A stretch of 32,000 nt of DNA from Gemmata obscuriglobus (GCF_008065095.1 NZ_CP042911.1:5490001-5522000); one strand, 5' to 3'. Counted from the stretch's first letter, positions 1 to 20,862 are shown. The notes: generated by a model from the letters alone, not told the origin. A program made the numbers and translations.

Positions 1-244
1 GTCGGAGGCCACCCACCACCCCCACTCGCGGCGACGAGCCGCGCCGACCACCGACCGGTGTTGGCGGAGCGCAACCGACCCGAACCGCCGTATCCCCACC
101 CGCCGCCCGCCACGCCCAACCGCACCTCGCGGCGGTGAGCCGCGCCAGCGACCACCGGCACCACGCGGAGCCCGACCCGCGGGCGTCACCCACGCGGACC
201 ACACGCACACCGCCACCGCACGCGCGCTCCAGAACGCGAGGGTG
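1..244 (-). repeat. ORF-less cassette body (partial; its attC lies off-window)
   Basis: Same C-rich, T-poor sub-repeat family; contains two cgcggcgRYgagccgcg hairpins. Confidence 0.65.
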
Positions 245-335
245 ACCGAACATAAAGCTCACCTGCACCGCCCCCTCCCAGGGAGCGATGCGTCACAAAC
301 TCGCGGGCGGTGTCAGGTGCAGCGCCGGGTTCGGC
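245..335 (-). other. attC site
   Basis: accgaac(variant R')..agctcacctgcaccgcc-loop-ggcggtgTcaggtgCagc..gttcggc. Confidence 0.75.
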
Positions 336-693
336 TCGATGCCCTCGGCGGTTCCGAGGTGGCACGCTCAGCATCGCGGCTCCGCGGAAGCCCGCCCACC
401 GTCGCGGCCGAGCGGAGCACCACCGACCCACCCGCCGTGTCCCGGCCCATTGGAGGCTGGCACCAACCGCACCTGGCGGCGACGAGCCGCGCCAACCACC
501 AGCGGGCGCCACGCGGAGCACCACCGACCCGAACCACCGTGTCCCCACGCGCCGCCGGCCACGCGCACCCGCACCTCGCGGCGGCGAGCCGCGCCAGACA
601 CGACCGGCACCCCGCGGAACCCGACACAAGGGTTTCACCACCGCGGACCACACGCCTCGCACCGCCGCACGCGCACTCATGCACGCGATGGTT
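336..693 (-). repeat. ORF-less cassette body, subfamily 1, 358 nt (2 core hairpins)
   Basis: Sub-repeats of ~101-102 nt; hand count of T is 28/358 on the plus strand; no conserved frame. Confidence 0.65.
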
Positions 694-784
694 GCCGAAC
701 GAACAGCTCACCTGCACCGCCATCATACCGTCAGCGGTGCGTCACAAACCCGATGGCGGTGTCAGGTGCAGCGCCGGGTTCGGC
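694..784 (-). other. attC site
   Basis: gccgaac..agctcacctgcaccgcc-loop-ggcggtgTcaggtgCagc..gttcggc. Confidence 0.8.
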
Positions 785-1143
785 TCGCTCACGTCCGCGG
801 GTCCGGGGCACACGCCGAGCGCTGCGCATCCGCGGAAGCCCGCCCACCGGTGCGGCCACGCGGAGCACCGCCGACCCGGAGCACCGTGTCGCGACACATC
901 GGAGGCCACCCACCCACCGCCACCCGCGGCGATGAGCCGCGCCCGCAACCGATCGGTCTCGGCGGAGCACTACCGACCCGAACCGCCGTGTCCCCACCCG
1001 CACCCCGGCCACGCCCAACCGCACCTCGCGGCGGTGAGCCGCGCCCGCGACCACCGGCACCACGCGGAGCCCGATGCGCGGGGGTCACCGTCGCGGACCA
1101 CACGCCCAGCTCCGCCGCACGCGCATTCATGCACGCTCGGGTT
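785..1143 (-). repeat. ORF-less cassette body, subfamily 1, 359 nt
   Basis: sub-repeat family; near-duplicate of 19363-19721. Confidence 0.65.
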
Positions 1144-1235
1144 GCCGAACATACAGCTCACCTGCACCGCCATCATCGGATGAGCGGTGCGTCGCAATAT
1201 CGCATGGCGGTGTCAGGTGCAGCGCCGGGTTCGGC
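1144..1235 (-). other. attC site
   Basis: canonical arms and R boxes as at 694-784. Confidence 0.8.
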
Positions 1236-1590
1236 TCGCTGACCTCGGCGGTTCCGGGGCACGCGCCCCGCGCCGCGCGTCCGCGGAGCCCGCGGCACCG
1301 GTGCGGCTCTGCGGAGCAGCACCGACCCGACGCGCCGTGTCGCGGCCCACTGGAGGCCACCCACCACCGCCCCTCGCGGCGATGAGCCGCGCCAGCCCCG
1401 ACCCGTATCAGCGAAGCCAACACCGATACGCACTATCGTGTCCCCATGCACCGCTGGCCATGCCCAACCGCACCTCGCGGCGGCGAGCCGCGCCCGCCAC
1501 AGACCGGCACCACGCGGAGCACCACACGCGCCGTTCACCCACGCGGACCACACGCCTACCGCCGCACGCGCACCCCGCGCCCTTCTGGTG
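1236..1590 (-). repeat. ORF-less cassette body, subfamily 1, 355 nt
   Basis: sub-repeat family. Confidence 0.65.
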
Positions 1591-1680
1591 GCCGAACAAT
1601 GAGCTCACCTGCACCGCCTGGGTGACGTGAGCACCACAACTATGGCCGATGGCGGTGTCAGGTGCAGCGCCGGGTTCGGC
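1591..1680 (-). other. attC site
   Basis: canonical arms and R boxes. Confidence 0.8.
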
Positions 1681-1688
1681 CTCGGCCC

Positions 1689-2030
1689 TCACGCGATCAA
1701 CCGGTGCCGTTGGCTCACTATCTGCTCGAACACAGACCAGCCATGCCCCTCGACGAGTCGGGTGAGCGCCTCGGCCGATGTCCGCACGGGATCATAGCGG
1801 ACCTGGACCCACACCACGGTGTACACGCCTCCTGTGACGGCCGCCAACTTGTCCCCATCGCACAGTTCGTCCGCCAACTGGCCACGGCTCTTAATGACCG
1901 TCAGAGAGTACCGAACAGCGTCGCCGTGGGACTCGGCGAACGCTGCGAACAGGAACTCAGCCCCGGCGAGGCTCGCAGCGAGGTCGCCAAGGTTCCGAAC
2001 GTCTACGCAGTTGAGAAGGCCAAGCGCCAT
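1689..2030 (-). CDS. Cassette-encoded hypothetical protein (113 aa)
   Basis: Internal ATG (MALGLLNCVD...) of track ORF 1689..2237. Normal amino-acid composition. GAGGG 7 nt upstream of the ATG. Stop lies 8 nt from the attC at 1591-1680. Confidence 0.6.
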   Translation of the reverse strand: MALGLLNCVDVRNLGDLAASLAGAEFLFAAFAESHGDAVRYSLTVIKSRGQLADELCDGDKLAAVTGGVYTVVWVQVRYDPVRTSAEALTRLVEGHGWSVFEQIVSQRHRLIA

Positions 2031-2046
2031 CCGAAGCCCTCGGTTG

Positions 2047-2199
2047 GCCGAACCAGGAGCTGAGCTGCAAGCCGCCCCTCTCAGGGCGGTCTCCCCTTGC
2101 TCCCGCGACGGCTGGTCAGCTCCAGCGGGGGGTTCGGCCGACGGCCGCCTCCTTCCGCCAGAGGATGAGTGAGCGTTGCAGCTCAGCTCCTGGTTCGGC
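2047..2199 (-). other. Alternative 153-nt palindromic attC-like site (copy 1 of 3)
   Basis: Perfect 24-bp terminal inverted repeat gccgaaccaggagctgagctgcaa / ttgcagctcagctcctggttcggc. It has the same R boxes as the attC sites, and an internal gttcggc at 2132-2138. Confidence 0.5.
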
Positions 2200-2372
2200 C
2201 GCCGCCGGATGAGCTCAGCCCACCGGGGACATCGCACGGCGGGAGATCACCATGCGACCTCAGGCCGCTCGGATCGGCGGGCCCTCGTCGGTCGCCTTCA
2301 CCAGGGGGGAGGTGGCGACAACCTTACGACCGCCCGCCGATCCGCGGCGCTTGCAACCACCTCACGGCGGCG
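2200..2372 (-). repeat. 173-nt ORF-less hairpin cassette body (copy 1 of 3)
   Basis: Closing stem cgccgccg (2200-2207) / cggcggcg (2365-2372). Inner 17-bp stem 2264-2282 / 2332-2348. No ORF conserved beyond the module. Confidence 0.55.
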
Positions 2373-2463
2373 GCCGAACAAATAGCTCACCTGCACCGCC
2401 ACATCCCGAGCAGCGATGCGTCATAAATCAGCGGGCGGTGTCAGGTGCAGCGCCGGGTTCGGC
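2373..2463 (-). other. attC site
   Basis: canonical arms and R boxes. Confidence 0.8.
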
Positions 2464-2921
2464 TCGCTGACCTCTGCGGTTCCGGGGCACGCGCCCCGCA
2501 CCGCGCATCCGCGGAGCCCGGGCCACCGGTGCGGGCAGGCGGAGCACCACCGACCCGAACCGCCGTGTCCCGGCCCACCGAGGGCCGCCCACCACCGCAC
2601 CTCGCGGCGACGAGCCGCGCCGACCACACCCGGGCACTACGCGGAGCACCACCGACACGCACCGCCGTGTCGCGGCTCACTGGAGGCCGCCCACCACCGC
2701 CACTCGCGGCGATGAGCCGCGCCCGTTACCACCGGCACCACGCGGAGCACCACCGACCCGCAATCACCGTGTCCGCACCCGCTCCCGGCCACGCCCACCC
2801 ACCACTCGCGGCGGTGAGCCGCGCCCGTCGCACTCGGGCACCACGCGGAGCCCGACACTCGCCGTTTACCACCGCGGACCACACGTTCAGCGCCGCACGC
2901 GCACTCATGCACGCGATGGTT
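2464..2921 (-). repeat. ORF-less cassette body, subfamily 1, long form 458 nt (3 core hairpins)
   Basis: sub-repeat family with one extra ~101-nt unit. Confidence 0.65.
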
Positions 2922-3034
2922 GCCGAACGATGAAGCTCACCGGCCCGGCCGCGACACCCGCGGCCTGAACGACAAACGGATGAGCACTGAAAAACCGGGC
3001 AGATGGCCGGGTCCGGTGCAGCGCCGGGTTCGGC
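2922..3034 (-). other. attC site (L-stem variant)
   Basis: gctcaccggcccggcc pairs with ggccgggTccggtgCagc: compensated changes, with the same two bulged bases. Confidence 0.75.
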
Positions 3035-3074
3035 GTGACTCTGCTGCACAATCAGTTGCGCGCGACGCCGATAC

Positions 3075-3479
3075 TCACCACTCTCGCCATTCCTCCGTGA
3101 TGTCATGCACGCTCGAAACCAGCCCGGCTCGTTGTGCCGCAGCAATGATTAACTCGCAGAGCTGCTCACGCTGGTCGGTCTCGATGAGAGAGCCATCGCA
3201 TCGGTCGTTCAACTTGTTCAGCTTGATGACCGCCGTCTTCACAGCCTTGAGGATGGCCTCGTTCTTCTTGGTTTCCGGCACTCCCTCCAGCGCGGCAAGC
3301 AACTCATCGACGATCTTTGCACACCTGTCGATGTCGGCCTGCGTGTACCCCGCGTCGAAATCCTCGTCGAAGTCCGGGTCGGCCTCGCTCTCGGCCGCGC
3401 CGAACTTCATGTAACTGACCATGCCGTCAATGGCAGCCTTCCGAAGCCGGAGGAGGTCTTGCTTGGTGGGCTTCGCCAT
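3075..3479 (-). CDS. Cassette-encoded hypothetical acidic protein (134 aa)
   Basis: Track ORF with an ATG start. Balanced, lower-GC composition unlike its surroundings. AGAGGG leader directly after the R' box. Confidence 0.7.
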   Translation of the reverse strand: MAKPTKQDLLRLRKAAIDGMVSYMKFGAAESEADPDFDEDFDAGYTQADIDRCAKIVDELLAALEGVPETKKNEAILKAVKTAVIKLNKLNDRCDGSLIETDQREQLCELIIAAAQRAGLVSSVHDITEEWREW

Positions 3480-3495
3480 CCGTGAACCCTCTTGT

Positions 3496-3586
3496 GCCGA
3501 ACATAAAGCTCACCTGCACCGCCATGATGCAGGCCGCAATGCGTTACAGAGCAGCCGGCGGTGTCAGGTGCAGCGCCGGGTTCGGC
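3496..3586 (-). other. attC site
   Basis: canonical arms and R boxes. Confidence 0.8.
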
Positions 3587-3942
3587 TCAATGCCCTCGGC
3601 GGTTCCGGGCGCGCTCAGTGTCGCGCATCTGCGGATGCCCGCGGCACCGGTGCGGCCGAGCGGAGCACCACCGACCCGCACCACCGTATCCCGACCCATC
3701 GGAGGCCGCCCAACACCGCACCTCGCGGCGATGAGCCGCGCCCACCACCGGCGGGCGCCACGCGGAGCACCACCGACCCGAACCGCCGTGTCCCACGATA
3801 CCACCAGCCACGCCCAACCGCAGCTCGCGGCGATGAGCCGCGCCCGCCCCGACCGGCACCACGCGGAGCACGACGCACGGGGTTCACCCACGCGGACCAT
3901 ACCGTCAGCGCCGCCGCACGGGCGATCATGCACGCGATGGTT
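3587..3942 (-). repeat. ORF-less cassette body, subfamily 1, 356 nt
   Basis: sub-repeat family. Confidence 0.65.
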
Positions 3943-4032
3943 GCCGAACATAAAGCTCACCTGCACCGCCCGTCCCGAGGAGCGATGCGTCACAAGTCAG
4001 CCGGCGGTGTCAGGTGCAGCGCCGGGTTCAGC
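3943..4032 (-). other. attC site
   Basis: canonical arms; R'' variant gttcagc. Confidence 0.75.
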
Positions 4033-4390
4033 TCGCTTACCTCGGCGGTTCCGGGCCTCACGCTGAGCGCCGCGCATCCGCTGTGCGCGTGCCACCAATG
4101 CGAGCGTGCGGAGCACCACCGATCCGACGTACCGTGCCGCGGCCCACCGGAGGCCGGCACCAACCGCCACCCGCGGCGACGAGCCGCGCCAGCCCTGATC
4201 GGCACCACGCGGAGCCCCACCGACTCGCGCCACCGTGTCCCCACTCACTGCCCGCCACGCCCAACCGCACCTCGCGGCGATGAGCCGCGCCGGCCACTCG
4301 CGGGCACCACGCGGAGCCCGACACGCACTGTTCACCTTTGCGGACCATACGTTCAGCGCCGCCGCACGCGCGATCGAGCGCCTTGGGGTT
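4033..4390 (-). repeat. ORF-less cassette body, subfamily 1, 358 nt
   Basis: sub-repeat family; duplicate of 14675-15032. Confidence 0.65.
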
Positions 4391-4481
4391 GCCGAACGTA
4401 AAGCTCACCTGCACCGCCATCACCGGATGAGCGATGCGCTCCTGATCAGCCGGCGGTGTCAGGTGCAGCGCCGGGTTCGGC
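4391..4481 (-). other. attC site
   Basis: canonical arms and R boxes. Confidence 0.8.
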
Positions 4482-4814
4482 TCGCTCACATCCGCGCCGC
4501 GCATCCGCGGATGCCCGCCCACCGGTGCGACCGGGCGGAGCACCACCGAACCACGGCGCCGTGTCCCGACACATCGGGGGCCACCCACCACCGCACCTCG
4601 CGGCGACGAGCCGCGCCGCCCCCCCCCGGGCACCACGCGGAGCGCCACCGACCCGAACCGCCGTGTCCCACGACACCGCCGGCCACGCTCACCGCAAGCT
4701 CGCGGCGACGAGCCGCGCCCGCCACCGCCGGCACCACGCGGAGCACCACACGCGCCGTTCACCCACGCGGACCACACACCCACCGCCGCACGCGCGCTCC
4801 TGCACGCGAGGGCG
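4482..4814 (-). repeat. ORF-less cassette body, subfamily 1 with shortened attC-proximal block, 333 nt
   Basis: sub-repeat family. Confidence 0.65.
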
Positions 4815-4904
4815 GCCGAACAAATAGCTCACCGGCCGCGGTGTGAGCGACACGGTCTACAAACAGCGCATTATACAGCGGTCCGGTGCAGCGCCCGGTT
4901 CGGC
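4815..4904 (-). other. attC site (L-stem variant)
   Basis: gctcaccggccgc pairs with gcggTccggtgCagc. Confidence 0.75.
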
Positions 4905-5234
4905 TTCTGCGCGGGCATGTGCGGTTCCGCGGAGCCCGCGCCCGCGTCGCGGTTCCGCCACCGACACGCGCCACCGGGCCGCGGCACACCGGTGGCCACC
5001 CACCACCGCACCTCGCGGCGGTGAGCCGCGCCACCCACCCACGGGCCACACGCGAAGCCACCACTGACACGCACCACCGTGTCCCCACGCGCTGCCGGCC
5101 ACGCCCACTCGCACCTCGCGGCGGTGAGCCGCGCCCGCACCCACGGGCACCACGCGGAGCCCGACGCGCGCGGTTCACCCACGCGGACCACACGCCCACC
5201 ACCGCCGCACGTGCGCTCACGGCACGCGATGGTA
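4905..5234 (-). repeat. ORF-less cassette body, subfamily 2 (starts ttctgcgc), 330 nt
   Basis: sub-repeat family. Confidence 0.65.
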
Positions 5235-5324
5235 GCCGAACAAACAGCTCACCTGCACCGCCCGTCCCGATGAGCGATGCCTCCCGAATCAGCCGGCGGT
5301 GTCAGGTGCAGCGCCGGGTTCGGC
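5235..5324 (-). other. attC site
   Basis: canonical; identical to 10990-11079. Confidence 0.8.
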
Positions 5325-5661
5325 TTCTGCGCCCACCGTCGCGGTTCCGCGGAGCCCGCGCCCGCGCCGCGCATCCGCGGAGCCACCACCGACCCGCACC
5401 ACCGTGCCGCGGCACACCGGTGGCCGCCCACCACCGACACCCGCGGCGGTGAGCCGCGCCCGCCAACCACGGGCACCACGCGGAGCACCACCGACCCGCA
5501 CCACCGTGTCCCCACCCACACCGGGCCACGACCACCCGCACCTCGCGGCGGCGAGCCGCGCCAACCACCAGCAGGCCACACGCGGAGCCCGACACCCGGG
5601 GTTCACCCACGCGGACCACACGCCCACTACCGCCGCACGCGCGCTCCTGCACGCGATGGTT
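5325..5661 (-). repeat. ORF-less cassette body, subfamily 2, 337 nt
   Basis: sub-repeat family; identical to 11080-11416. Confidence 0.65.
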
Positions 5662-5752
5662 GCCGAACATAAAGCTCACCTGCACCGCCATCACCGGATG
5701 AGCGGTGCGCCCCCAATCAGCCGGCGGTGTCAGGTGCAGCGCCGGGTTCGGC
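5662..5752 (-). other. attC site
   Basis: canonical; same loop as 7571-7661 and 11417-11507. Confidence 0.8.
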
Positions 5753-6213
5753 TCCCTGACCACCGCGGTTCGGGGGCACACGCCGAGCACCGCGGCTCCG
5801 TGGATGCCCGCGGCACCGGTGCGGCCCTGCGGAGCATCACCGACTCCGCGCCCCGTGTCCCGGCCCACCGAGGGCCACCCACCACCGACACCTCGCGGCG
5901 GTGAGCCGCGCCCGCCACCAACGGCGCCACGCGGAGCACCACCGACACGACCCGCCGTGTCCCGGCACACCGGAGGCCACGCCCACCGCCACACGCGGCG
6001 ACGAGCCGCGCCAACCACCCACGGGCACCACGCGGAGCGCCACCGACCCGCACCACCGTGTCCCCACCCGCACCCGGCCACGCCCAACCGCCACTCGCGG
6101 CGGCGAGCCGCGCCAGACACCCACGAGCACCACGCGGAGCCCGGCGCGCGGGCGTCACCCACGCGGACCACACGCCCAGCACCACCGCACGGGCGCTCGC
6201 GCGGCTTTGGGTG
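5753..6213 (-). repeat. ORF-less cassette body, subfamily 1, long form 461 nt
   Basis: sub-repeat family. Confidence 0.65.
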
Positions 6214-6303
6214 GCCGAACGAACAGCTCACCTGCACCGCCAGGATGAAGTGAGCATCACAACTGCGGCCGATGGCGGTGTCAGGTGCAGCGCCGGGTTC
6301 GGC
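6214..6303 (-). other. attC site
   Basis: canonical arms and R boxes. Confidence 0.8.
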
Positions 6304-6638
6304 TTCTGCGCTGGCATGTGCGGTTCCGCGGAGCCCGCGCTTGCACCGCGCATCCGCGGAGCCACCACCGACCCGCACCACCATGCCGCGGCACACCGGG
6401 GGCCACCCACCACGGCACCGCGCGGCGATGAGCCGCGCCGCCCACCGACCGGTATCGGCGGAGCACCACCGATTCGACGCGCCGTGTCCCCACGCGCCTC
6501 CGCCCACGCCCAACCGCACCTCGCGGCGATGAGCCGCGCCAGACACGACCGGCACCACGCGGAGCACCACACGCGAGGTTCACCCATGCGGACCACACGC
6601 TCAGCGCCGCCGCACGCGCGCTCCAGAACGCGAGGGTG
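6304..6638 (-). repeat. ORF-less cassette body, subfamily 2, 335 nt
   Basis: sub-repeat family. Confidence 0.65.
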
Positions 6639-6729
6639 GCCGAACGAACAGCTCACCTGCACCGCCACCACCGGATGAGGGGTGCGTCACAAACCCGCGG
6701 GCGGTGTCAGGTGCAGCGCCGGGTTCGGC
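6639..6729 (-). other. attC site
   Basis: canonical arms and R boxes. Confidence 0.8.
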
Positions 6730-7060
6730 TTCTGCGCTGGCATTTGCGGTTCCGCGGAGCCCGCACCCGCACCGCGCATCCGCGGAGCCACCACCGACAC
6801 GCACCACCGTGCCGCGGCACATCGGGGGCCACCCAACACGGCACCTCGCGGCGATGAGCCGCGCCGACCACCGACCGGTCTCGGCGGAGCGCCACCGACC
6901 CGAACGGCCGTGTCCCCACGCGCCCCCGGCCACGCCCAACCGCAACTCGCGGCGGTGAGCCGCGCCAACCACCGACCGGCAGCACGCGGAGCCACCACCG
7001 TCTGGTGCCCCGCGGACCACACGCACGCGCGCCGCACGCGCACTCATGCACGCGAGGGTG
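6730..7060 (-). repeat. ORF-less cassette body, subfamily 2, 331 nt
   Basis: sub-repeat family. Confidence 0.65.
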
Positions 7061-7151
7061 GCCGAACATACAGCTCACCGGCCGCGGGACCACGCGACAC
7101 GGTCGGGAAAGTACGTATTTGACCGCGGTCCGGTGCAGCGCCGGGTTCGGC
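7061..7151 (-). other. attC site (L-stem variant)
   Basis: gctcaccggccgcgg pairs with ccgcggTccggtgCagc. Confidence 0.75.
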
Positions 7152-7278: not shown

Positions 7279-7545
7279 TCAGCCGCTCGGAGCAGCGAAT
7301 GCACAGGTCCCACCCACCCTGACCTCGGCCACATCCGTGAGCGCGAAGTTCATGAACGCCCCAACCGGGATGGAACCCGCCGCGACAGTCAGGATCTCGG
7401 CAATGACATCGCCGCCGGCATCCGCGTGAGCCGTCGAGATGACCCGCACCCCATACGCCTCGCCGTCGTAGAAGCGGATCACTGCATCCGCGGATGAGCG
7501 ATCTAACTCGTGCAGGAGAGATAAGAGGTTGCCGTCTATCGCCAC
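7279..7545 (-). CDS. Cassette-encoded hypothetical protein (88 aa, GTG start)
   Basis: Track ORF with GGAGG 7 nt upstream of the GTG. A 127-nt remnant of a subfamily-2 ORF-less block (7152-7278) follows it. Confidence 0.5.
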   Translation of the reverse strand: MAIDGNLLSLLHELDRSSADAVIRFYDGEAYGVRVISTAHADAGGDVIAEILTVAAGSIPVGAFMNFALTDVAEVRVGGTCAFAAPSG

Positions 7546-13433: not shown

Positions 13434-13789
13434 TCGCTCACGTCCGCGGTTCCGGGTCACGCGCCGAGCGATGCGGCTCCGCGGAGCCCGGGCCACCGGT
13501 GCGACCCGGCGGAGCACCACCGGCTCCCCGCGCCGTGTCCCGGCACACCGAGGGCCACCCACCACCGCACCTCGCGGCGATGAGCCGCGCCCACCACCCA
13601 CGGGCACCACGCGGAGCACCACCGACCCGAACCACCGTGTCCCACGATACCACCAGCCACGCTCACCGCAAGCTCGCGGCGACGAGCCGCGCCCGTCGCA
13701 CTCGGGCACCACGCGGAGCCCGACACGTAGGGTTCACCCACGCGGACCACACGCACACCGCCGCACGCGCGATCCAGAACGCGAGGGTG
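13434..13789 (-). repeat. ORF-less cassette body, subfamily 1, 356 nt
   Basis: sub-repeat family; its 5' boundary joins the alternative attC-like site. Confidence 0.65.
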
Positions 13790-13942
13790 GCCGAACCAGG
13801 AGCTGAGCTGCAAGCCGCCCCTCTCAGGGCGGTCTCCCCTTGCTCCCGCGACGGCTGGTCAGCTCCAGCGGGGGGTTCGGCCGACGGCCGCCTCCTTCCG
13901 CCAGAGGATGAGTGAGCGTTGCAGCTCAGCTCCTGGTTCGGC
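13790..13942 (-). other. Alternative 153-nt palindromic attC-like site (copy 2 of 3)
   Basis: same 24-bp terminal inverted repeat as 2047-2199. Confidence 0.5.
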
Positions 13943-14115
13943 CGCCGCCGGATGAGCTCAGCCCACCGGGGACATCGCACGGCGGGAGATCACCATGCGA
14001 CCTCAGGCCGCTCGGATCGGCGGGCCCTCGTCGGTCGCCTTCACCAGGGGGGAGGTGGCGACAACCTTACGACCGCCCGCCGATCCGCGGCGCTTGCAAC
14101 CACCTCACGGCGGCG
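13943..14115 (-). repeat. 173-nt ORF-less hairpin cassette body (copy 2 of 3)
   Basis: same sequence as 2200-2372. Confidence 0.55.
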
Positions 14116-14206
14116 GCCGAACGAACAGCTCACCTGCACCGCCACCATCGGATGAGCGATGCGTTCCAAATTAGCCGGCGGTGTCAGGTGCAGCGCCGGG
14201 TTCGGC
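14116..14206 (-). other. attC site
   Basis: canonical arms and R boxes. Confidence 0.8.
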
Positions 14207-14210
14207 GCGG

Positions 14211-14567
14211 CTATACTACCCGGTCGGGCGACTCGCTACCTGGTTCGGCGTCTTGCGGCCGGGGCACGCGGTAGAGGCGTGTCCCAGGGGTGATCGGAAA
14301 ATCGGCCCACCCTCGCACCAGTACTCCAACCTCGTCGCCCCGGCGCACCTCATCTAGGGTCTGCATCCACCGCTCGATTGCAACCGCGACGCCCCGGCAG
14401 ATCAGGCGGTCTGCCACCGCGACGACACGATCGCCGACCCGCAGCACCTCGCACTCGACGCGGCCGACGAGGATGGTGCCCTTCGCCCGCATCACGTGCT
14501 CGGCAGTGAGGATCAATTCCGCCCCGGCGGGTAACTGGTCACAGGGGCCGATCACCGCCTCGCCCAC
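14211..14567 (-). CDS. Stand-alone EF-Tu domain-II-like (GTP_EFTU_D2) beta-barrel protein (118 aa, GTG start)
   Basis: GTILVGRVECEVLRVGDRVVAV...IERWMQTLDEVRRGDEVGVLVRG aligns by eye to EF-Tu [22 protein letters not shown]...[23 protein letters not shown]. Confidence 0.7.
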   Translation of the reverse strand: MGEAVIGPCDQLPAGAELILTAEHVMRAKGTILVGRVECEVLRVGDRVVAVADRLICRGVAVAIERWMQTLDEVRRGDEVGVLVRGWADFPITPGTRLYRVPRPQDAEPGSESPDRVV

Positions 14568-14583: not shown

Positions 14584-14674
14584 GCCGAACAGAAAGCTCA
14601 CCTGCACCGCCATGATACAGTGAGCGGTGCGTCCCGAATCAGATGGCGGTGTCAGGTGCAGCGCCGGGTTCGGC
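14584..14674 (-). other. attC site
   Basis: canonical arms and R boxes. Confidence 0.8.
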
Positions 14675-15032
14675 TCGCTTACCTCGGCGGTTCCGGGCCT
14701 CACGCTGAGCGCCGCGCATCCGCTGTGCGCGTGCCACCAATGCGAGCGTGCGGAGCACCACCGATCCGACGTACCGTGCCGCGGCCCACCGGAGGCCGGC
14801 ACCAACCGCCACCCGCGGCGACGAGCCGCGCCAGCCCTGATCGGCACCACGCGGAGCCCCACCGACTCGCGCCACCGTGTCCCCACTCACTGCCCGCCAC
14901 GCCCAACCGCACCTCGCGGCGATGAGCCGCGCCGGCCACTCGCGGGCACCACGCGGAGCCCGACACGCACTGTTCACCTTTGCGGACCATACGTTCAGCG
15001 CCGCCGCACGCGCGATCGAGCGCCTTGGGGTT
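14675..15032 (-). repeat. ORF-less cassette body, subfamily 1, 358 nt
   Basis: duplicate of 4033-4390. Confidence 0.65.
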
Positions 15033-15123
15033 GCCGAACATAAAGCTCACCTGCACCGCCCTCACCGGATGAGCGGTGCGTCCCGAATCAGCCGGCGGTG
15101 TCAGGTGCAGCGCCGGGTTCGGC
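15033..15123 (-). other. attC site
   Basis: canonical; contains the stop of SUKH copy 3. Confidence 0.8.
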
Positions 15124-15537
15124 GTTTGGGGATAACCCGGCGGCCAGGAACGCGGGGAACGAAGGGGCCATCTCGTGGATGCCGCCAAAGTCGTGATCCT
15201 CGACCAGCACTCGCCCGGACGAGAGCTCGATGCCGAACGGGTTGCCGCCGCCATCCCAACCGATGATGAACACTCCTCGCATGTGCCAGAACTCGTTGTC
15301 CGCTCGGAACTGGCGGTGCGAATCGGCCAACTCGGGCAGCCCGTCGATCCACTCGCCGTCACCGCCCACGCGCCCGCCGCACACCGTCAGGTACTCGCGG
15401 AACGCTGGCGGGATCGTCCCGAACTCGACCTCGAACGCCCGCAGGTCGCCCTCGGCGGCCGGCGGGTGGCGTTCCTCCTCAGGGCAGGCGTGCCACGCCG
15501 CGACAAGGAGTTGCCGCAGTCGCTCGTTCACATGCAA
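15088..15537 (-). CDS. SMI1/KNR4 (SUKH-1) family protein, copy 3 of 3
   Basis: Translations are identical to copies 1 and 2 in all frames. Confidence 0.8.
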   Translation of the reverse strand: MHVNERLRQLLVAAWHACPEEERHPPAAEGDLRAFEVEFGTIPPAFREYLTVCGGRVGGDGEWIDGLPELADSHRQFRADNEFWHMRGVFIIGWDGGGNPFGIELSSGRVLVEDHDFGGIHEMAPSFPAFLAAGLSPNAEPGAAPDTAG

Positions 15538-15547: not shown

Positions 15548-15638
15548 GCCGAACATAAAGCTCACCTGCACCGCCATCATCGGATCAGCAGTGCGTCACA
15601 ATGCAGCGGGCGGTGTCAGGTGCAGCGCCGGGTTCGGC
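15548..15638 (-). other. attC site
   Basis: canonical arms and R boxes. Confidence 0.8.
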
Positions 15639-15893
15639 TCGCTCACGTCCGCGGTTCCGGGCGGCACGCCCCGCACCGCGGCTCCGCGGAGCCCGGGCCA
15701 CCCACGGACCACACGCGGAGCACCACCGACTCCGCGCGCCGTGTCCCCACGCGCCTCCGGCCACGCCCAACCGTACCTCGCGGCGATGAGCCGCGCCAGC
15801 TACCACGGGCACCACGCGGAGCGCCACACCGCCGCTTGATGCCCTGCGGACCACACGCCTACCGCCGCACGCACACTCATGCACGCGAGGGCG
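15639..15893 (-). repeat. ORF-less cassette body, subfamily 1, short form 255 nt
   Basis: sub-repeat family. Confidence 0.65.
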
Positions 15894-15984
15894 GCCGAAC
15901 GAACAGCTCACCTGCACCGCCATCACCGGATGAGCGGTGCGTCACAAATCAGCGGGCGGTGTCAGGTGCAGCGCCGGGTTCGGC
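15894..15984 (-). other. attC site
   Basis: canonical arms and R boxes. Confidence 0.8.
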
Positions 15985-16355
15985 TCGCGGCCGTCCGCGG
16001 TTCCGGGCCACACGCTCGGCGCCGCGCATCTGCGGATGCCCGCGGCACCGGTGCGGCCCTGCGGAGCATCACCGACTCCGCGCGCCGTGTCGCGGCCCAC
16101 CGTGGCCACCCACCACGGCCACCCGCGGCGGTGAGCCGCGCCCGCCACCCACGGGCACCACGCGGAGCACCACCGACCCGCACCGCCGTGTCCCGATGCA
16201 CCACCCGCCACGCTCACCGCAAGCTCGCGGCGGTGAGCCGCGCCACACACCCACGGGCACCACGCGGAGCCCGACGCGGAGCCCGACGCGCGGGGTTCAC
16301 CCACGCGGACCACGCGCCCACCACCGCCGCACGCGCCCTCATGCACGGTCGGGTG
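15985..16355 (-). repeat. ORF-less cassette body, subfamily 1, 371 nt
   Basis: sub-repeat family. Confidence 0.65.
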
Positions 16356-16445
16356 GCCGAACGAACAGCTCACCTGCACCGCCAGGGTGAAGTGAGCACC
16401 ACAACTATGGCCGATGGCGGTGTCAGGTGCAGCGCCGGGTTCGGC
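16356..16445 (-). other. attC site
   Basis: canonical arms and R boxes. Confidence 0.8.
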
Positions 16446-16804
16446 GCGCTCACGTCCGCGGTTCCGAGCCATGCGCCCAGCACCGCGCATCCGCGGAGCC
16501 CGTGCCACCGGTGCGGGCGGGCGGAGCACCACCGGCCCCACGCACCGTGTCGCGGCACACCGGAGGCCACCCACCACTGGACCGCGCGGCGACGAGCCGC
16601 GCCCGCCACCCACCGGCACCACGCGGAGCACCACCGACCCGATGCACCGTGTCCCCTCGCGCCGCCGGCCACGCCCACCGCCACTCGCGGCGACGAGCCG
16701 CGCGGGCCACCGGCGGGGCACCACGCGGAGCCCGATACACCGGCGCCACCACCGCGGACCACACGCCCCGCACCGCCGCCCCCGCGCTCATGCACGCGAT
16801 GGTG
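16446..16804 (-). repeat. ORF-less cassette body, subfamily 1, 359 nt
   Basis: sub-repeat family. Confidence 0.65.
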
Positions 16805-16895
16805 GCCGAACATAAAGCTCACCTGCACCGCCATGATGCAGGATGCGGTGCGTCGCAGTTAAGCGGGCGGTGTCAGGTGCAGCGCCGGGTTCGGC
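16805..16895 (-). other. attC site
   Basis: canonical arms and R boxes. Confidence 0.8.
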
Positions 16896-16903: not shown

Positions 16904-17254
16904 CTACACCCGGAAGAGGCGAGCCGCGATGGCCGCAACCGCGCCGACCTGCTCCGTGGGTACGAAGATGGTGAACCGCGTGGTGCGATATCTCCGCCCG
17001 CGGAACTCAGCGAAGTATCGCACCCCAATACGGGCCATCTCTTGGTCGAACAGGTAGATGTTGTGCTCTGCGGTCTCGCGGAACACGCCTGCGTACTCGA
17101 CAGCCCCAACCGGCTGGGGCAACTCAGCGACCGACCCGACCATGTGTTGCGCGCGGCGCTGCCACGCGCCCACCGGCCTCTTCTTGCGGGCTCCGCCGGG
17201 GCGGCCGGGCCAACGTCGGGCGCCCTTACCGCGACTTCGTGGCGAACGGCACAT
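16904..17254 (-). CDS. Cassette-encoded hypothetical protein (~116 aa; start uncertain)
   Basis: The C-terminal ~80 aa have ordinary composition (VEYAGVFRETAEHNIYLFDQEMARIGVRYFAEF...). The first in-cassette ATG is at 17254; an alternative ATG is at 17143. Confidence 0.45.
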   Translation of the reverse strand: MCRSPRSRGKGARRWPGRPGGARKKRPVGAWQRRAQHMVGSVAELPQPVGAVEYAGVFRETAEHNIYLFDQEMARIGVRYFAEFRGRRYRTTRFTIFVPTEQVGAVAAIAARLFRV

Positions 17255-17274: not shown

Positions 17275-17367
17275 GCCGAACAATGAAGCTCACCGGCTTG
17301 CCCCCGCTCAGGTGAGTTCCGCGGATGTAATCAGCAGGGGCAAGTCCGGTGCAGCGCCGGGTTCGGC
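17275..17367 (-). other. attC site (L-stem variant)
   Basis: gctcaccggcttgcccc pairs with ggggcaagTccggtgCagc. Confidence 0.75.
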
Positions 17368-17380: not shown

Positions 17381-17797
17381 CTACCGGACCTGTACGACAA
17401 TCGCGGCCGCGAACCCGACTAGGGTGCCCCCGACCGCGAGCCCGCCCCACGTCCGGAATGCCTCACCGGGGGTCCACAGGACGCCACACTCGGGCCGCCC
17501 GGGCGGGTAGCGGATGGATGCGACCTCCCCGACCGGCCACTCATCGGCCGAGGCGGGCAGCGCCTCGACCTCGACCGACCGCCCCTCCGTCTCCAACCGG
17601 ACGACCGCGGCCCGCCCGCCCCACCACGAGGCCCGCGTCGCCCCGGTCACCGTCCCGGTCGCCCGGACCCCGCGGCGGGCGCGCACCCACCGGGGGATCA
17701 GTGGCAGGGAAAGTACGATGTTGACCGCCCCGAGGGCGGCGCAGAACAGTCCGGTCAGCACAATGTACCCTCGGCGGTGCGCACCCAACTGTAGCAC
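17381..17797 (-). CDS. DUF3592-like two-TM membrane protein (~138 aa; start uncertain)
   Basis: N-terminal TM (YIVLTGLFCAALGAVNIVLSLPLI), central ATGTV...VASIRYPPGRPE beta-rich segment, and C-terminal TM. There is no ATG inside the cassette, so GTG at 17797 is assumed. Confidence 0.5.
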   Translation of the reverse strand: MLQLGAHRRGYIVLTGLFCAALGAVNIVLSLPLIPRWVRARRGVRATGTVTGATRASWWGGRAAVVRLETEGRSVEVEALPASADEWPVGEVASIRYPPGRPECGVLWTPGEAFRTWGGLAVGGTLVGFAAAIVVQVR

Positions 17798-17824: not shown

Positions 17825-17916
17825 GCCGAACATACAGCTCACCTGCACCGCCATCACCGGATGAGCGGTGCGTTCCCGAATCAGCCGGCGGTGTCAGGTG
17901 CAGCGCCGGGTTCGGC
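17825..17916 (-). other. attC site
   Basis: canonical arms and R boxes. Confidence 0.8.
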
Positions 17917-18272
17917 TCGCTGCCCTCGGCGGTTCCGGGCGACACGCTCCGCACCGCGGATCCGCAGAGCCCGGGCCACCGGTGCGGCCGAGCGGAGCAC
18001 CACCGACCCGACGCGCCGTGTCGCGGCCCAGCGGAGGCCGGCACCGTCGCACCGCGCGGCGACGAGCCGCGCCGCCCACCCACGGCACCACGCGGAGCAC
18101 CACCAACCCGAACCGCCGTGTCCCCATGCGCGGCTGGCCGCGCTCACCGCAAGCTCGCGGCGATGAGCCGCGCCCGCGACCACCGGCATCATGCGGAGCC
18201 CGACACGCGGAGTTCACCCATGCGGACCACACGCCCAGCACCGCCGCCCGCGCGATCATGCACGCGATGGCG
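17917..18272 (-). repeat. ORF-less cassette body, subfamily 1, 356 nt
   Basis: sub-repeat family. Confidence 0.65.
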
Positions 18273-18363
18273 GCCGAACATAAAGCTCACCTGCACCGCC
18301 ATGATGCAGGATGCGGTGCGTCCCGAATCAGCGGGCGGTGTCAGGTGCAGCGCCGGGTTCGGC
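18273..18363 (-). other. attC site
   Basis: canonical arms and R boxes. Confidence 0.8.
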
Positions 18364-18725
18364 TCGCTCACGTCCGCGGTTCCGGGCCACACGCCGAGCG
18401 CCACGCATCCGCGGAAGCCCGCCCACCGTCGCGGCCGAGCGGAGCACCACCGACCCCACCCGCCGTGTCCCGGCCCACCGCAGGCCACCCACCACCGCAC
18501 CTCGCGGCGATGAGCCGCGCCCGCCACCGGCGGGGGCCACGCGGAGCACCACCGACCCGAACCACCGTGCCGTCGCACACCGGAGGCCACGCACCACTGC
18601 ACCTCGCGGCGACGAGCCGCGCCCACCACCGACCGGCACCACGCGGAGCACTACCGACACGCGGGGGCACCCACGCGGACAACACGCCCCGCACCGCCGC
18701 ACGCGCGATCGAGCGGCTTGGGGTG
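18364..18725 (-). repeat. ORF-less cassette body, subfamily 1, 362 nt
   Basis: sub-repeat family. Confidence 0.65.
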
Positions 18726-18816
18726 GCCGAACGAACAGCTCACCTGCACCGCCCCTTCCCAGGGAGCGGTGCGTCCCGAATCAGCGGGCGGTGTCAGGTG
18801 CAGCGCCGGGTTCGGC
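18726..18816 (-). other. attC site
   Basis: canonical arms and R boxes. Confidence 0.8.
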
Positions 18817-19271
18817 TCACTGACCTCCGCGGTTCCGGGCGACACGCGCCGCACCGCGGCTCCGCGGAGCCCGTGCCACCGGTGCGGCCGGGCGGAGCAC
18901 CCCCAACCCGATGCGCCGTGTCGCGACACATCGGAGGCCACCCACCACCGCCACCCGCGGCGATGAGCCGCGCCCGCCACCCACGGGCGCCACGCGGAGC
19001 ACCACCGACACGAACCGCCGTGTCCCCACCCGCGCCCGGCCACGCCCAACCACACCTCGCGGCGGCGAGCCGCGCCAGACCCGATCGGCACCACGCGGAG
19101 CGCCACCGAACCGACACGCCGTGTCCGCACCCGCCACCGGCCGCGCCCACCGCACCTCGCGGCGACGAGCCGCGCCACACACCCACGGGCACCACGCGGA
19201 GCCCGACCCTCGGGATTCACCTTCGCGGACCACACGCCCACCGCCGCACGCGCGATCGAGCAACTCGGGTG
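18817..19271 (-). repeat. ORF-less cassette body, subfamily 1, long form 455 nt
   Basis: sub-repeat family. Confidence 0.65.
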
Positions 19272-19362
19272 GCCGAACGAACAGCTCACCTGCACCGCCA
19301 TCATACAGTCAGCGGTGCGTCACAAACCCGATGGCGGTGTCAGGTGCAGCGCCGGGTTCGGC
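19272..19362 (-). other. attC site
   Basis: canonical arms and R boxes. Confidence 0.8.
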
Positions 19363-19721
19363 TCGCTCACGTCCGCGGGTCCGGGGCACACGCCGAGCGC
19401 TGCGCATCCGCGGAAGCCCGCCCACCGGTGCGGGCGGGCGGAGCACCACCGACCCCGCGCGCCGTGTCGCGACACATCGGAGGCCACCCACCCACCGCCA
19501 CCCGCGGCGATGAGCCGCGCCCGCAACCGATCGGTCTCGGCGGAGCACTACCGACCCGAACCGCCGTGTCCCCACCCGCACCCCGGCCACGCCCAACCGC
19601 ACCTCGCGGCGGTGAGCCGCGCCCGCGACCACCGGCACCACGCGGAGCCCGATGCGCGGGGGTCACCGTCGCGGACCACACGCCCAGCTCCGCCGCACGC
19701 GCATTCATGCACGCTCGGGTT
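19363..19721 (-). repeat. ORF-less cassette body, subfamily 1, 359 nt
   Basis: near-duplicate of 785-1143. Confidence 0.65.
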
Positions 19722-19874
19722 GCCGAACCAGGAGCTGAGCTGCAAGCCGCCCCTCTCAGGACGGTCTCCCCTTGCTCCCGCGGCGGCTTGTCAGCTCCAG
19801 CGGGGGGTTCGGCCGACGGCCGCCTCCTTCCGCCAGAGGGTGAGTGAGCGTTGCAGCTCAGCTCCTGGTTCGGC
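19722..19874 (-). other. Alternative 153-nt palindromic attC-like site (copy 3 of 3)
   Basis: same 24-bp terminal inverted repeat as 2047-2199. Confidence 0.5.
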
Positions 19875-20047
19875 CGCCGCCGGATGAGCTCAGCCCACCG
19901 GGGACATCGCACGGCGGGAGAACACCATGCGACCTCGGGCCGCTCGGATCGGCGGGCCCTCGCCGGTCGCCTTCACCAGGGGGGAGGTGGCGACAACCTT
20001 ACGACCGCCCGCCGATCCGCGGCGCTTGCAACCACCTCACGGCGGCG
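19875..20047 (-). repeat. 173-nt ORF-less hairpin cassette body (copy 3 of 3)
   Basis: same as 2200-2372 with a few substitutions. Confidence 0.55.
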
Positions 20048-20138
20048 GCCGAACGAACAGCTCACCTGCACCGCCATCACACGATGAGCGGTGCGTCACA
20101 ATACAGCGGGCGGTGTCAGGTGCAGCGCCGGGTTCGGC
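20048..20138 (-). other. attC site
   Basis: canonical arms and R boxes. Confidence 0.8.
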
Positions 20139-20494
20139 TCGCTGCCGTCCGCGGTTCCGGGCGACACGCCGAGCGCCGCGCATCTGCGGATGCCCGCGGC
20201 ACCGGTGCGACCGGGCGGAGTGCTACCGACTCGATGCGCCGTGTCCCGGCCCATCGAGGGCCACGCCCACCGCTACACGCGGCGACGAGCCGCGCCCCTA
20301 CCCACGGGCACCACGCGGAGCGCCACCGACCCGAACCGCCGTGTCCCCACACACCGCCGGCCACGCCCAACCGCACCTCGCGGCGACGAGCCGCGCCAGC
20401 ACCGACCGGCACCACGCGAAGCCCGACACGCGAGACTCACCACCGCGGACCACACGCTCAGCGCCGCCGCACGCGCCCTCATGCCCTCGGGGTT
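20139..20494 (-). repeat. ORF-less cassette body, subfamily 1, 356 nt
   Basis: sub-repeat family. Confidence 0.65.
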
Positions 20495-20585
20495 GCCGAA
20501 CGAAAAGCTCACCTGCACCGCCATCATCGGAAGAGCGATGCGTCACAAACTAGCGGGCGGTGTCAGGTGCAGCGCCGGGTTCGGC
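20495..20585 (-). other. attC site
   Basis: canonical arms and R boxes; last (integrase-proximal) attC of the array. Confidence 0.8.
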
Positions 20586-20837
20586 CGGCCTTTGCTGGGC
20601 GAGTTGCACCCGCGCCTCCTGCCATTGGGGCCAGACCCGCTCTGGGTCGAGGTCGTTGTACCCCCGCTTCTCGTCCAGCGCGATGGCGTGCTCCTCCCGC
20701 ATCATCATGCATACCCCGTTGTCCCGGATGGCCAGCACCTCGGCCTCGGTCAGCGGGCGACCCTTCTCCCGCTCGGAGTGGACGAGCAGAACGACGAGAG
20801 CGGGCATGAACACCGGGGTCAGCTTCGGCTCCGCCAT
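20550..20837 (-). CDS. Cassette-encoded hypothetical protein (95 aa); first cassette next to the array end
   Basis: Internal ATG (MAEPKLTPVF...) of track ORF 20550..20897, with a GAGGGCGCAAAGG leader. Reads through the attC arm (tail AEPGAAPDTAR). Confidence 0.55.
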   Translation of the reverse strand: MAEPKLTPVFMPALVVLLVHSEREKGRPLTEAEVLAIRDNGVCMMMREEHAIALDEKRGYNDLDPERVWPQWQEARVQLAQQRPAEPGAAPDTAR

Positions 20838-20855
20838 CCTTTGCGCCCTCGGGTT

Positions 20856-20862
20856 GCCGAAC
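20856..20862 (-). other. Terminal solo R box (array/flank junction; candidate attI crossover point)
   Basis: gccgaac with no partner arm. The sequence to its right (cagtgtttagtgtgcgagg...) is unrelated to any attC. Confidence 0.5.

Follow-up and report, generated by a model that had tools for sequence, protein, structure and literature searches.

What is the long run of imperfect palindromes in the Gemmata obscuriglobus chromosome, and if it is an integron, where is the integrase? The stretch of DNA that we analysed (hereafter the window) is 32,000 nt long. A preliminary description claimed 45 hairpins within its first 20.9 kb and interpreted them as integron attC sites, and our analysis supports that interpretation. 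We conclude that the region is very probably what remains of a sedentary chromosomal integron, namely its cassette array and attI site, after the loss of the integrase gene (intI); such an element is a CALIN, here with 47 attC sites. CALINs are sets of at least two co-oriented attC sites with no intI within 4 kb, and loss of intI is one possible origin for them (Cury et al. 2016, PMC4889954). The element is thus of a known kind: a "decapitated" sedentary chromosomal integron is a large CALIN.

The arm of the hairpin, GCTCACCTGCACCGCC, occurs 39 times (with up to 3 mismatches), on the plus strand only; dinucleotide shuffles average 1.4 occurrences. Pairing CCGAAC with a downstream GTTCGG recovers 44 sites, and the 45th (3943-4032) has a mutated R'' box. 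A structural regular expression matches 45 times on the plus strand and never on the minus strand of the window, with no matches in 20863-32000 or in the stretches L001 (1-19035) and L066 (12758-20342). The claimed 45 hairpins are confirmed, and all are co-oriented. As had been suspected, the array continues past position 1: two more attC sites lie leftward of the window, the last of them ending about 727 nt out (L066 up to 12757), followed by an IS5 remnant and then mutS. The whole array therefore has 47 sites, and it is also found in ABGO01, an independent draft genome of G. obscuriglobus.

1-20861, minus strand: integron cassette array, with 45 complete cassettes and a partial one at 1-250
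245-20585, cassettes on the minus strand, bottom strand of attC being the plus strand of the window: 45 attC sites of 90-113 nt each, as follows
attC sites 1-15, starting at 245, 694, 1144, 1591, 2047, 2373, 2922, 3496, 3943, 4391, 4815, 5235, 5662, 6214, 6639
attC sites 16-30, starting at 7061, 7571, 8086, 8532, 9092, 9587, 10037, 10486, 10990, 11417, 11932, 12473, 12820, 13343, 13790
attC sites 31-45, starting at 14116, 14584, 15033, 15548, 15894, 16356, 16805, 17275, 17825, 18273, 18726, 19272, 19722, 20048, 20495

attC sites have R boxes of the form RYYYAAC and GTTRRRY with a conserved AAC...GTT, an unpaired spacer of 5-6 nt in each arm, and a length of 57-141 nt. The R box pair GCCGAAC...GTTCGGC is present in 44 of our 45 sites; in the exception (3943-4032), R'' is GTTCAGC on the plus strand, or GCTGAAC on the top strand. 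Position 4 of R'' is a G, not a pyrimidine, yet it is paired with a C in R'. When folded as single-stranded DNA, the plus strand forms a 7-bp R stem, an unpaired spacer (5+5 nt), 3 bp, a bulged C, 6 bp, a bulged T, 7 bp, and a variable loop, with z-scores of -3 to -4. This structure is kept while the sequence varies, at lengths of 90-113 nt.

9587-9677, minus strand: representative attC site (-25.1 kcal/mol, z = -3.6), whose geometry agrees with PMC5027507; the top strand reads R'' GCCGAAC, spacer CCGGC, GCT, extrahelical G16, CACCTG, extrahelical A23, CACCGCC, loop, GGCGGTG, CAGGTG, AGC, spacer TTGTT, R' GTTCGGC (the extrahelical bases are C16 and T23 on the bottom strand)
17275-17367, minus strand: sequence-divergent attC site with unchanged structure, stem CCGGCTTGCCCC / GGGGCAAG-T-CCGGTG-C-AGC
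2922-3034, 4815-4904 and 7061-7151, minus strand: divergent attC variants resembling 17275-17367

The four divergent sites provide compensatory changes inside the window. Among 148 distinct sites from relatives, 96.6% of the cells in the L stem are paired, and 175 cells have double changes, which involve 9 of the 16 L-stem pairs; the alignment was fitted to our own covariance model. As controls, slid alignments had 32-43% of cells paired, and none of 500 shuffles attained the observed values. Fold and covariation thus agree with the claimed architecture of R boxes, unpaired spacer, L stem, extrahelical bases, and variable loop.

The features that had been singled out as unusual are less so than they seemed. 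In canonical attC sites, the '' arm alone carries extrahelical bases, one at position 16 and one at position 23/24, and a 6-bp stem separates the two (PMC5027507). The two bulges described as "7 nt apart" are both present, and they are no departure from the classical site: they are at positions 16 and 23, on the '' arm only, with the 6-bp stem in between. The extrahelical C does differ from the usual G, but this is minor, as C is the majority state in the attC model for Planctomycetes (Ghaly et al. 2021, PMC8352920, supplementary file 3), where position 16 is a top-strand G in ~62% of the training sites. C16 is no novelty. Similarly, the R' box GTTCGGC is a rarer variant (in PMC8352920, the R-box consensus is GCCUAAC/GUUAGGC, with G at position 4 in ~5% and C at position 100 in ~7%), but it covaries properly, and this deviation is also minor. 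Like our sites, the Planctomycetes model has a 7-nt R'', a 5-nt spacer, 3 bp, an unpaired position 16, and invariant AAC and GTT; what differs is the Gemmata R box (GCCGAAC/GTTCGGC) and the low scores from sequence alone. Specifically, the sequence-only HMM embedded in the covariance model matched 42 of the 45 sites end to end, on the minus strand, with 3.3-18.6 bits. Its matches to 20 shuffles numbered 0-4, with a maximum of 4.8 bits. The scores of real sites are individually weak (3-19 bits), which counts against the interpretation, and they come from the embedded HMM; the cut-off of 60 bits belongs to the full covariance model. Both this profile and our own covariance model take the minus strand as the top strand. 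As discussed below, the open reading frames agree, so the cassettes are on the minus strand, as proposed.

Placing the boundaries at GCCGAA|C divides the array (GC content ~72%) into 45 cassettes of 326-574 bp, with the attI-proximal cassette at the right end. Fifteen of these contain a minus-strand ORF that starts 17-58 nt past the boundary and ends in or near the attC hairpin. These positions confirm the 15 credible ORFs that had been reported, all on the minus strand with the hairpin at the 3' end. Their GC3 is 0.71-0.90, and several match gene calls of the public record.

7626-8075, 11472-11921 and 15088-15537, minus strand: three copies of a cassette ORF of the SMI1/KNR4 (SUKH) family, 149 amino acids (PF09346, E = 6.5e-11)
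1689-2030, 3075-3479, 7279-7545, 8628-9077, 9146-9565, 10597-10977, 12053-12421, 12939-13310, 14211-14567, 16904-17254, 17381-17797 and 20550-20837, minus strand: other cassette ORFs
2053-2378, 13796-14121 and 19728-20053, minus strand: three copies of a 326-bp cassette

The attC of the 326-bp cassette differs in sequence (GCTGAGCTGCAAGCCGCC...) and possesses a second outer arm, which is perfectly complementary. Gemmataceae CJuql4 (L041) has two copies of this cassette. Where cassettes are duplicated, the copies begin and end at cassette junctions, and their neighbours differ. The block at 5235-5752, which equals 10990-11507, likewise has common cassette boundaries; the cassette-level boundaries that had been described for the duplicates are correct. 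Three cassettes recur at distant positions in the array with 100% identity.

We find the same attC arm in 62 stretches; nearly all of these are from Planctomycetota, and in every one the sites form co-oriented arrays. Integron integrases (TIGR02249) are encoded adjacent to the same attC type in L041 (450 bits), L022 (420 bits), and L005 (399 bits), with a cut-off of 265 bits, and there are further copies of intI in L006, L043, and L068. All five related loci with this attC type have intI on the strand of the cassettes, with its stop codon facing attI; the gene is located ~150-570 nt past the attI junction, and its transcription runs towards the cassettes. This is the inverted-integrase type of integron, known from Treponema, Planctomycetes, and other groups (cited in PMC4889954 and PMC8352920), although G. 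obscuriglobus itself has no intI here. The Gemmata type of attC (C16/T23, R box GCCGAAC) is common to Planctomycetota and is tied to inverted-orientation integrases, and it could improve taxon-specific attC models.

Just past the last hairpin, the right end of the array appears to retain an attI site, as judged from its similarity to the corresponding region of G. algarum.

20856-20862, minus strand: lone R' half-site GCCGAA|C, at the junction of the first cassette and attI
20863-21047, minus strand: attI-like region of ~185 nt, ~90% identical to the attI-proximal end of the intI-attI spacer of G. algarum JC717
21048-28200, no strand assigned: nested insertion-sequence debris (by Pfam annotation), occupying the expected place of intI
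about 21101-21640, plus strand: IS630-type HTH fragment
21658-23441 (plus strand) and 25346-27099 (minus strand): UPF0236-like elements
23937-24821 (plus strand) and 27136-27735 (minus strand): IS66-family DDE fragments

A G. algarum contig ends exactly at ...CACTAAACACTG, which is the other side of the junction between the first cassette and attI. The attI-like region contains two direct copies of GCGCAATAACACGG (20886-20899 and 20986-20999), and similar motifs are found in the region downstream of intI in L005, L041, and L006. Immediately past the attI-like region, the IS fragments begin: the DNA upstream of the array has been replaced by IS elements.

A tblastn search with Gemmata IntI (best E = 4) turned up neither intI nor a remnant of it in the 11 kb on the right of the array and the 7.6 kb on its left. 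Two protein searches, seeded with IntI from Gemmataceae and from G. algarum, found no G. obscuriglobus protein with at least ~64% identity to Gemmata IntI among the best 120 of about 8000 matches in each; pseudogenes are invisible to such searches, and other G. obscuriglobus proteins are present in the collection. A complete integron has intI beside the array, attI where the first cassette begins, and a promoter (Pc) from which the cassettes are expressed; in G. obscuriglobus the expected place of intI holds IS fragments instead. By the wording of the preliminary description, a missing intI would be half a failure of its interpretation, yet arrays without an integrase are a recognised class (CALIN, PMC4889954), and the IS cluster lies where intI is expected.

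Given the canonical attC geometry, the strict co-orientation, the covariation, the ORFs that end at attC, the integrases in relatives, and the attI homology, we infer that this is an integron array; given the retained attI-like region, the IS debris in place of intI, and the failure to find intI, it is a large CALIN, with 47 attC sites and no intI within the distances stated above. Established integron biology suggests that IntI assembled the array in the past: each ~90-nt hairpin would have functioned as an attC, whose bottom strand (the plus strand of the window) folds when single-stranded. IntI, a tyrosine recombinase, would recognise the folded site via the R box, the unpaired spacer, and extrahelical C16 and T23; by cutting GCCGAA|C between its A and its C, it would remove or insert a single cassette. 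Insertion of IS630-, UPF0236-, and IS66-like elements into one another at the expected position of intI may account for its loss. Since IS fragments occupy that position, the array is probably frozen now, unless an integrase is supplied in trans.

Like other CALINs, the array has co-oriented attC sites, no intI, cassettes that mostly lack a known function, and IS elements nearby (PMC4889954), but here the attI side is kept and the point of loss maps to the IS cluster. Sedentary chromosomal integrons have more than 19 attC sites or are present in all genomes of the species (Cury 2016, PMC4889954). With 47 sites, and with the array in ABGO01 as well, the G. obscuriglobus array fits this description apart from the missing integrase. 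Similarly, the superintegron of Vibrio cholerae (with VCR as its attC) is chromosomal and has more than 19 attC sites, very homogeneous attCs, small cassettes, and many paralogous cassettes. Unlike that superintegron, the Gemmata array has no integrase, a GC content of ~72%, and very short cassettes (326-574 bp), 60% of which belong to one non-coding family. So high a proportion of ORF-less cassettes is atypical for an integron array and counts against our interpretation. The picture of what integrons are is unchanged, but this is a well-resolved example of the transition from a large chromosomal integron to a CALIN, in which the attI side was kept, intI was replaced by nested insertion sequences, and the breakpoint can be mapped against a sister species.

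Could an active intI instead lie elsewhere on the 9-Mb chromosome, parted from its array by IS-mediated rearrangement and shuffling cassettes in trans? IntI is reported to be encoded in the same replicon for half of all CALINs (Cury et al., PMC4889954), integrons are split by agents such as the IS cluster found at this junction, and the three cassettes with identical distant copies and different neighbours suggest recent movement of cassettes. But identical attC repeats every 450 bp would also permit RecA-dependent rearrangement, so the duplicates need no integrase. Also, the protein searches described above turned up no such IntI down to ~64% identity; because they do not see pseudogenes and cover the best 120 of about 8000 matches, this leaves its absence unproven, and we consider a complete but split integron to be unlikely.

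Two other explanations involve no integrase at all. In a tandem satellite, a unit of ~450 bp (hairpin plus G-rich body) would have been amplified by unequal crossing-over, which would fit the absence of the integrase, the modal spacing of ~450 bp, and the 27 of 45 units that are paralogous and similar in length. These paralogues are only 72-85% identical, however, while the hairpin arms are nearly invariant, and variant hairpins hold their structure by compensatory changes. Interleaved among the paralogues are 18 unrelated cassettes (15 with ORFs), and the exact GCCGAA|C boundary is present in all. In other species, moreover, quite different genes are flanked by the same hairpin, which there also adjoins intI and attI. 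These observations largely refute the satellite explanation, which we regard as very improbable. It is scarcely credible that these are REP/BIME-like or MITE-like palindromes that are clustered here by happenstance. Like REP/BIME elements, the hairpins are GC-rich imperfect palindromes in many copies, but REP/BIME elements are dispersed through intergenic regions of the whole genome and in both orientations. In contrast, the hairpins number 47 in the 21.6 kb of the array and none in ~26 kb of flanking DNA, and they point one way throughout the window, as do the sites of each of the 25 other loci that have at least two. They also have a 90-nt length and an asymmetric bulge architecture that are unlike REP elements, they flank ORFs at a fixed junction, and in relatives they occur together with intI and attI. 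Whole-genome matches in G. algarum and Gemmata sp. SMAG_U3706 are all in clusters with cassette-like spacing.

The most interesting aspect of the array is its non-coding cargo. A single G-rich, ORF-less family makes up 27 of the 45 cassettes (60%).

251-699, 700-1149, 1150-1596, 2379-2927, 3502-3948, 3949-4396, 4397-4820, 4821-5240 and 5241-5667, minus strand: G-rich cassettes 1-9
5668-6219, 6220-6644, 6645-7066, 8092-8537, 9593-10042, 10043-10491, 10996-11422, 12479-12825 and 13349-13795, minus strand: G-rich cassettes 10-18
14590-15038, 15554-15899, 15900-16361, 16362-16810, 17831-18278, 18279-18731, 18732-19277, 19278-19727 and 20054-20500, minus strand: G-rich cassettes 19-27

Perhaps these cassettes are functional non-coding elements and not junk, although we hold this only tentatively and think it somewhat doubtful. 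They might be, for example, arrays of protein-binding sites or sponge-like RNAs. If functional, they would amount to a new class of cargo for integrons, one that has become dominant in a chromosomal array, and cargo would not be limited to protein genes; if selfish, they would be a clear case of a cassette spreading for its own sake. In each G-rich cassette, units of A and B type (100-103 nt) alternate between a head and a tail. Although whole copies are just 72-85% identical to each other (about 79%), several blocks are invariant over 78 distinct units, including the hairpin GGCGCGGCTC-RY-CGCCGCG, which points to selection on motifs at the DNA or RNA level. G. algarum and Gemmata sp. SMAG_U3706 have members of this family as well, and these blocks are invariant across the three Gemmata species.

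The arm GCTCACCTGCACCGCC occurs 39 times in the window with up to 3 mismatches, and every copy is on the + strand; shuffled sequences average 1.4 copies. Pairing CCGAAC with a downstream GTTCGG yields 44 hairpins. A 45th hairpin, at 3943-4032, has GTTCAGC as its R'' box in place of GTTCGGC, and a lone GCCGAAC lies at 20856-20862. A structural regular expression recovers 45 sites on the + strand and 0 on the - strand; the 11 kb that follow the array on the right contain none, and the hairpin is absent from ~26 kb of flanking DNA. Folded as single-stranded DNA, the sites have a 7-bp R stem and 5+5 unpaired nucleotides, then helices of 3, 6, and 7 bp separated by a bulged C (after the 3 bp) and a bulged T (after the 6 bp), and finally a variable loop; the z-scores are -3 to -4. 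Pairing, the structural expression, and folding all agree with the preliminary description of 45 hairpins with this fold and layout. The site that starts at 245 has a mutated R' box (ACCGAAC, 245-251); this site and the one at 3943-4032 are possibly decaying, as expected without an integrase. We rejected a CRISPR because the repeat length is 90 nt and the "spacers" (235-480 nt) are paralogous or contain ORFs.

According to Nivina et al. 2016 (PMC5027507), the central spacer of an attC site leaves 5-6 nt unpaired on each arm; position 16 carries an extrahelical base, most often G, and a T is conserved at position 23 or 24; 6 bp of stem separate the two extrahelical bases; and the whole site measures 57-141 nt. 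The geometry of the sites in the window is exactly this, with C16 and T23. Although the bulged C and the GTTCGGC box are indeed present, as had been claimed, the C is not exotic. In the Planctomycetes attC covariance model from the supplement of Ghaly et al. 2021 (PMC8352920), which was trained on 188 sites, the top strand has G at the unpaired position 16 with a probability of ~0.62 (C, ~0.33), so C is the majority base on the bottom strand. The R box GCCGAAC/GTTCGGC is a rare variant within the training set of that model.

We transcribed the HMM that accompanies this covariance model and ran it with nhmmer, which uses the sequence terms only. It matched 42 of the 45 sites from end to end, on the minus strand, with individually weak scores (3.3-18.6 bits). 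There was one weak stray match on the + strand, and 20 shuffles gave 0-4 matches each (4.8 bits or less). The individual scores are weak because the structural terms are absent and because the R box is rare in the training set.

The window has a GC content of ~70%, and from 1 to ~20.9 kb its + strand is strongly C-rich, with a GC skew between -0.10 and -0.23. When the array is cut at GCCGAA|C, it falls into 45 cassettes of 326-574 bp. As previously noted, ORFs are on the minus strand with the hairpin at their 3' end: this holds for all 15 of the cassettes with an ORF (88-149 amino acids; GC3 of 0.71-0.90). These ORFs start 17-58 nt past the cassette boundary and stop at or inside the hairpin. 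One of them, in three copies, belongs to the SMI1/KNR4 family. Duplicated blocks, which the preliminary description had also reported, are 97-100% identical; they end at cassette junctions, and the neighbors differ between copies. The identity between 5235-5752 and 10990-11507 runs on into the following attC because that attC is common to the SMI1 cassettes. The attC at 5662-5752, which belongs to a G-rich cassette (5668-6219), is identical to those at 7571-7661 and 11417-11507, which belong to SMI1/KNR4 cassettes (two of the three copies). The implication is that attC sites were exchanged or that hybrid cassettes arose, by attC x attC or homologous recombination.

The array was said to be still running at position 1, and a locus that extends the window leftward (L066) bears this out. 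It contains two further attC sites, which bring the whole array to ~21.6 kb and 47 attC sites, followed by an attC-less terminal piece, an IS5-type remnant, and mutS. At L066 12758-13400, the attC-less piece is followed by DNA for the C terminus of an IS5-type transposase (…RYDKTARNSLAFVHIASIMILLR), just ahead of mutS. The flanking kinase and one cassette ORF are found both in the 8.99 Mb G. obscuriglobus chromosome CP025958.1 and in the independent draft ABGO01.

To the right of the array, beyond 21047, are an IS630-type HTH fragment, two UPF0236-like elements, and IS66-family fragments. Together with the IS5-type remnant on the left, this means that both ends of the array abut IS remnants. 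The debris forms a nested IS graveyard (21048-28200), in which a UPF0236-like element and an IS66-family element have inserted into the IS630-type transposase and split it:

~21101-21640, HTH part of an IS630-type transposase (a DDE_3 fragment lies further on, according to the public annotation)
25346-27099, second UPF0236-like copy, inverted
27136-27735, further IS66 fragment

We built our own covariance model from the attC sites of the window, and it identified ~230 further sites in related loci, each scoring 60-70 bits higher on one strand. Among 148 distinct best sites, in an alignment fitted to this same model, 96.6% of cells are paired, and in 9 of the 16 L-stem pairs both positions change (175 cells). 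None of 500 shuffles reached these values, and slid controls pair at 32-43%. An exact scan for the attC 3' arm, with one genome per species, found 62 stretches, nearly all from Planctomycetota. Many of these are multi-copy, and every multi-copy stretch is co-oriented. Carriers include Gemmata algarum, Gemmata sp. SMAG_U3706, Gemmata sp. IIL30, Gemmataceae CJuql4, Pirellulales, and Phycisphaeraceae. One contig that was binned as "uncultured Alcaligenaceae" combines a Gemmata-type attC with an attI motif that is also similar, and it encodes an IntI with 68% identity to the Gemmata IntI; it has more AT-rich attC variants as well (GTTAGCC and GTTATGG). The explanation is either wrong binning of this contig or an exchange of integrons between phyla.

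An IntI1 sequence, which we used as a lead only, pointed to integrase genes in five related loci. Three of these are integron integrases according to NCBIfam (TIGR02249 at 450, 420, and 399 bits; the cut-off is 265). In all of these loci, intI shares the strand of the cassettes, and its stop codon is on the side of the array. Such an "inverted integrase" layout is known from Treponema and Planctomycetes (PMC4889954).

The contig of G. algarum JC717 stops at ...CACTAAACACTG, ~565 nt past the stop codon of intI. The last ~185 nt of this spacer align at ~90% identity with 20863-21047 of the window. The alignment begins exactly at the cassette junction, and homology ceases beyond 21047. This attI-like region contains two direct copies of GCGCAATAACACGG (20886-20899 and 20986-20999). 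Other loci also have analogous repeats downstream of intI, such as the pair …GCGAGCCTCGCACACCAACACGG / …GCGAGGCTCGCACACCATCACGG between attI and intI in L041 (from CJuql4). By analogy with DR1/DR2 of attI1, the GCGCAATAACACGG copies and the L041 pair may be accessory IntI-binding sites.

Using tblastn, with the IntI1 sequence and then with the Gemmata IntI, we found no intI remnant in the window; with the Gemmata IntI, the best E-value over the window and its flanks was 4. The preliminary description had proposed looking for intI elsewhere in the genome. Two database searches, seeded with the Gemmataceae and G. algarum IntI, each listed the best 120 homologs (to ~64% identity), and none of those listed is on an 8.99 Mb contig, the length of the G. 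obscuriglobus chromosome. With no tblastn match and no listed homolog on a contig of that length, we conclude from sequence comparison that this locus, and probably the genome as a whole, has lost intI.

We count attC structure, strand polarity, cassette modularity, attI retention, linkage to IntI in relatives, and IS elements where intI would be expected as observations; from established integron biology, we infer assembly, loss of intI, and present stasis. IntI would have assembled the array by recombining folded bottom strands at attI and cleaving them at GCCGAA|C. Insertion of an IS or a deletion would then have removed intI, and the array would now be static unless an integrase is supplied in trans. 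The dispersed duplicates that are 100% identical suggest that the loss was recent. Another possibility is that homologous recombination between near-identical attC repeats is still reshuffling the cassettes.

By the definitions of Cury et al. 2016 (PMC4889954), the array is a CALIN, and its attC count is in the range of sedentary chromosomal integrons (>19). Planctomycetes integrons and a Planctomycetes attC model are already published (PMC4889954, PMC8352920), and our literature search on Gemmata, integron, and attC found no description of this Gemmata array. Specialists may be interested in how intI was replaced by IS elements at a mapped site, and in the dominance of non-coding cassettes.

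That dominance is due to one ORF-less family, G-rich on the cassette strand, which accounts for 27 of the 45 cassettes and 60% of the array (251-20500; for example, 9593-10042). The same family is also found in three of the loci that we compared with the window (L026, L051, and L037). Each cassette has a head of ~80 nt, usually two units (A then B, which alternate and measure 100-103 nt), a tail of ~90 nt, and the attC. We counted 57 copies of the hairpin GGCGCGGCTC-RY-CGCCGCG in the window, against 0 expected. Copies are 72-85% identical to each other (median 79%) and 79-88% identical to their best counterparts in G. algarum.

We rejected the idea that these cassettes encode proteins. The spacing of the units within a cassette varies (100, 101, 102, or 103 nt) and thus does not maintain a reading frame, and the candidate ATG is not conserved. 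Block-wise conservation, the lack of 3-nt periodicity, and low-complexity-like translations in all frames also argue against coding. As for known RNAs, Rfam gave no match, including to group II introns or known sRNAs, either over the whole window at gathering thresholds or over 1-7100 at E <= 1. An RNA fold of the whole cassette showed no excess stability (z = +0.9 and +0.1 on the two strands). RNAalifold and mutual information, applied to sets of 51 and 78 units, recovered only the invariant 6-bp hairpin; there was no covariation beyond it, and the top correlated columns reflect the split between A and B subtypes rather than Watson-Crick pairing. In JGI metagenome contigs, the two-block unit pattern matched 0 stretches, and the unit 19-mer alone gave only single matches in GC-rich contigs, probably by chance.

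The main alternative is that the family is a selfish cassette, which spreads because its attC is an efficient substrate. Several blocks are invariant across 78 distinct units from three Gemmata species, despite the low identity of whole copies, and the best reading is that the family is a putative non-coding element under constraint.

A 326-bp cassette, in three copies, has a nested attC (2047-2200, 13790-13943, and 19722-19875), and we did not find a convincing ORF in these copies. The inner '' arm has the usual two bulges. The outer arm, TTGCAGCTCAGCTCCTGGTTCGGC (2176-2200), is a perfect complement of the ' arm, without bulge or spacer. This cassette is also found twice in the distant Gemmataceae strain CJuql4 (L041 957-1105 and 2313-2460).
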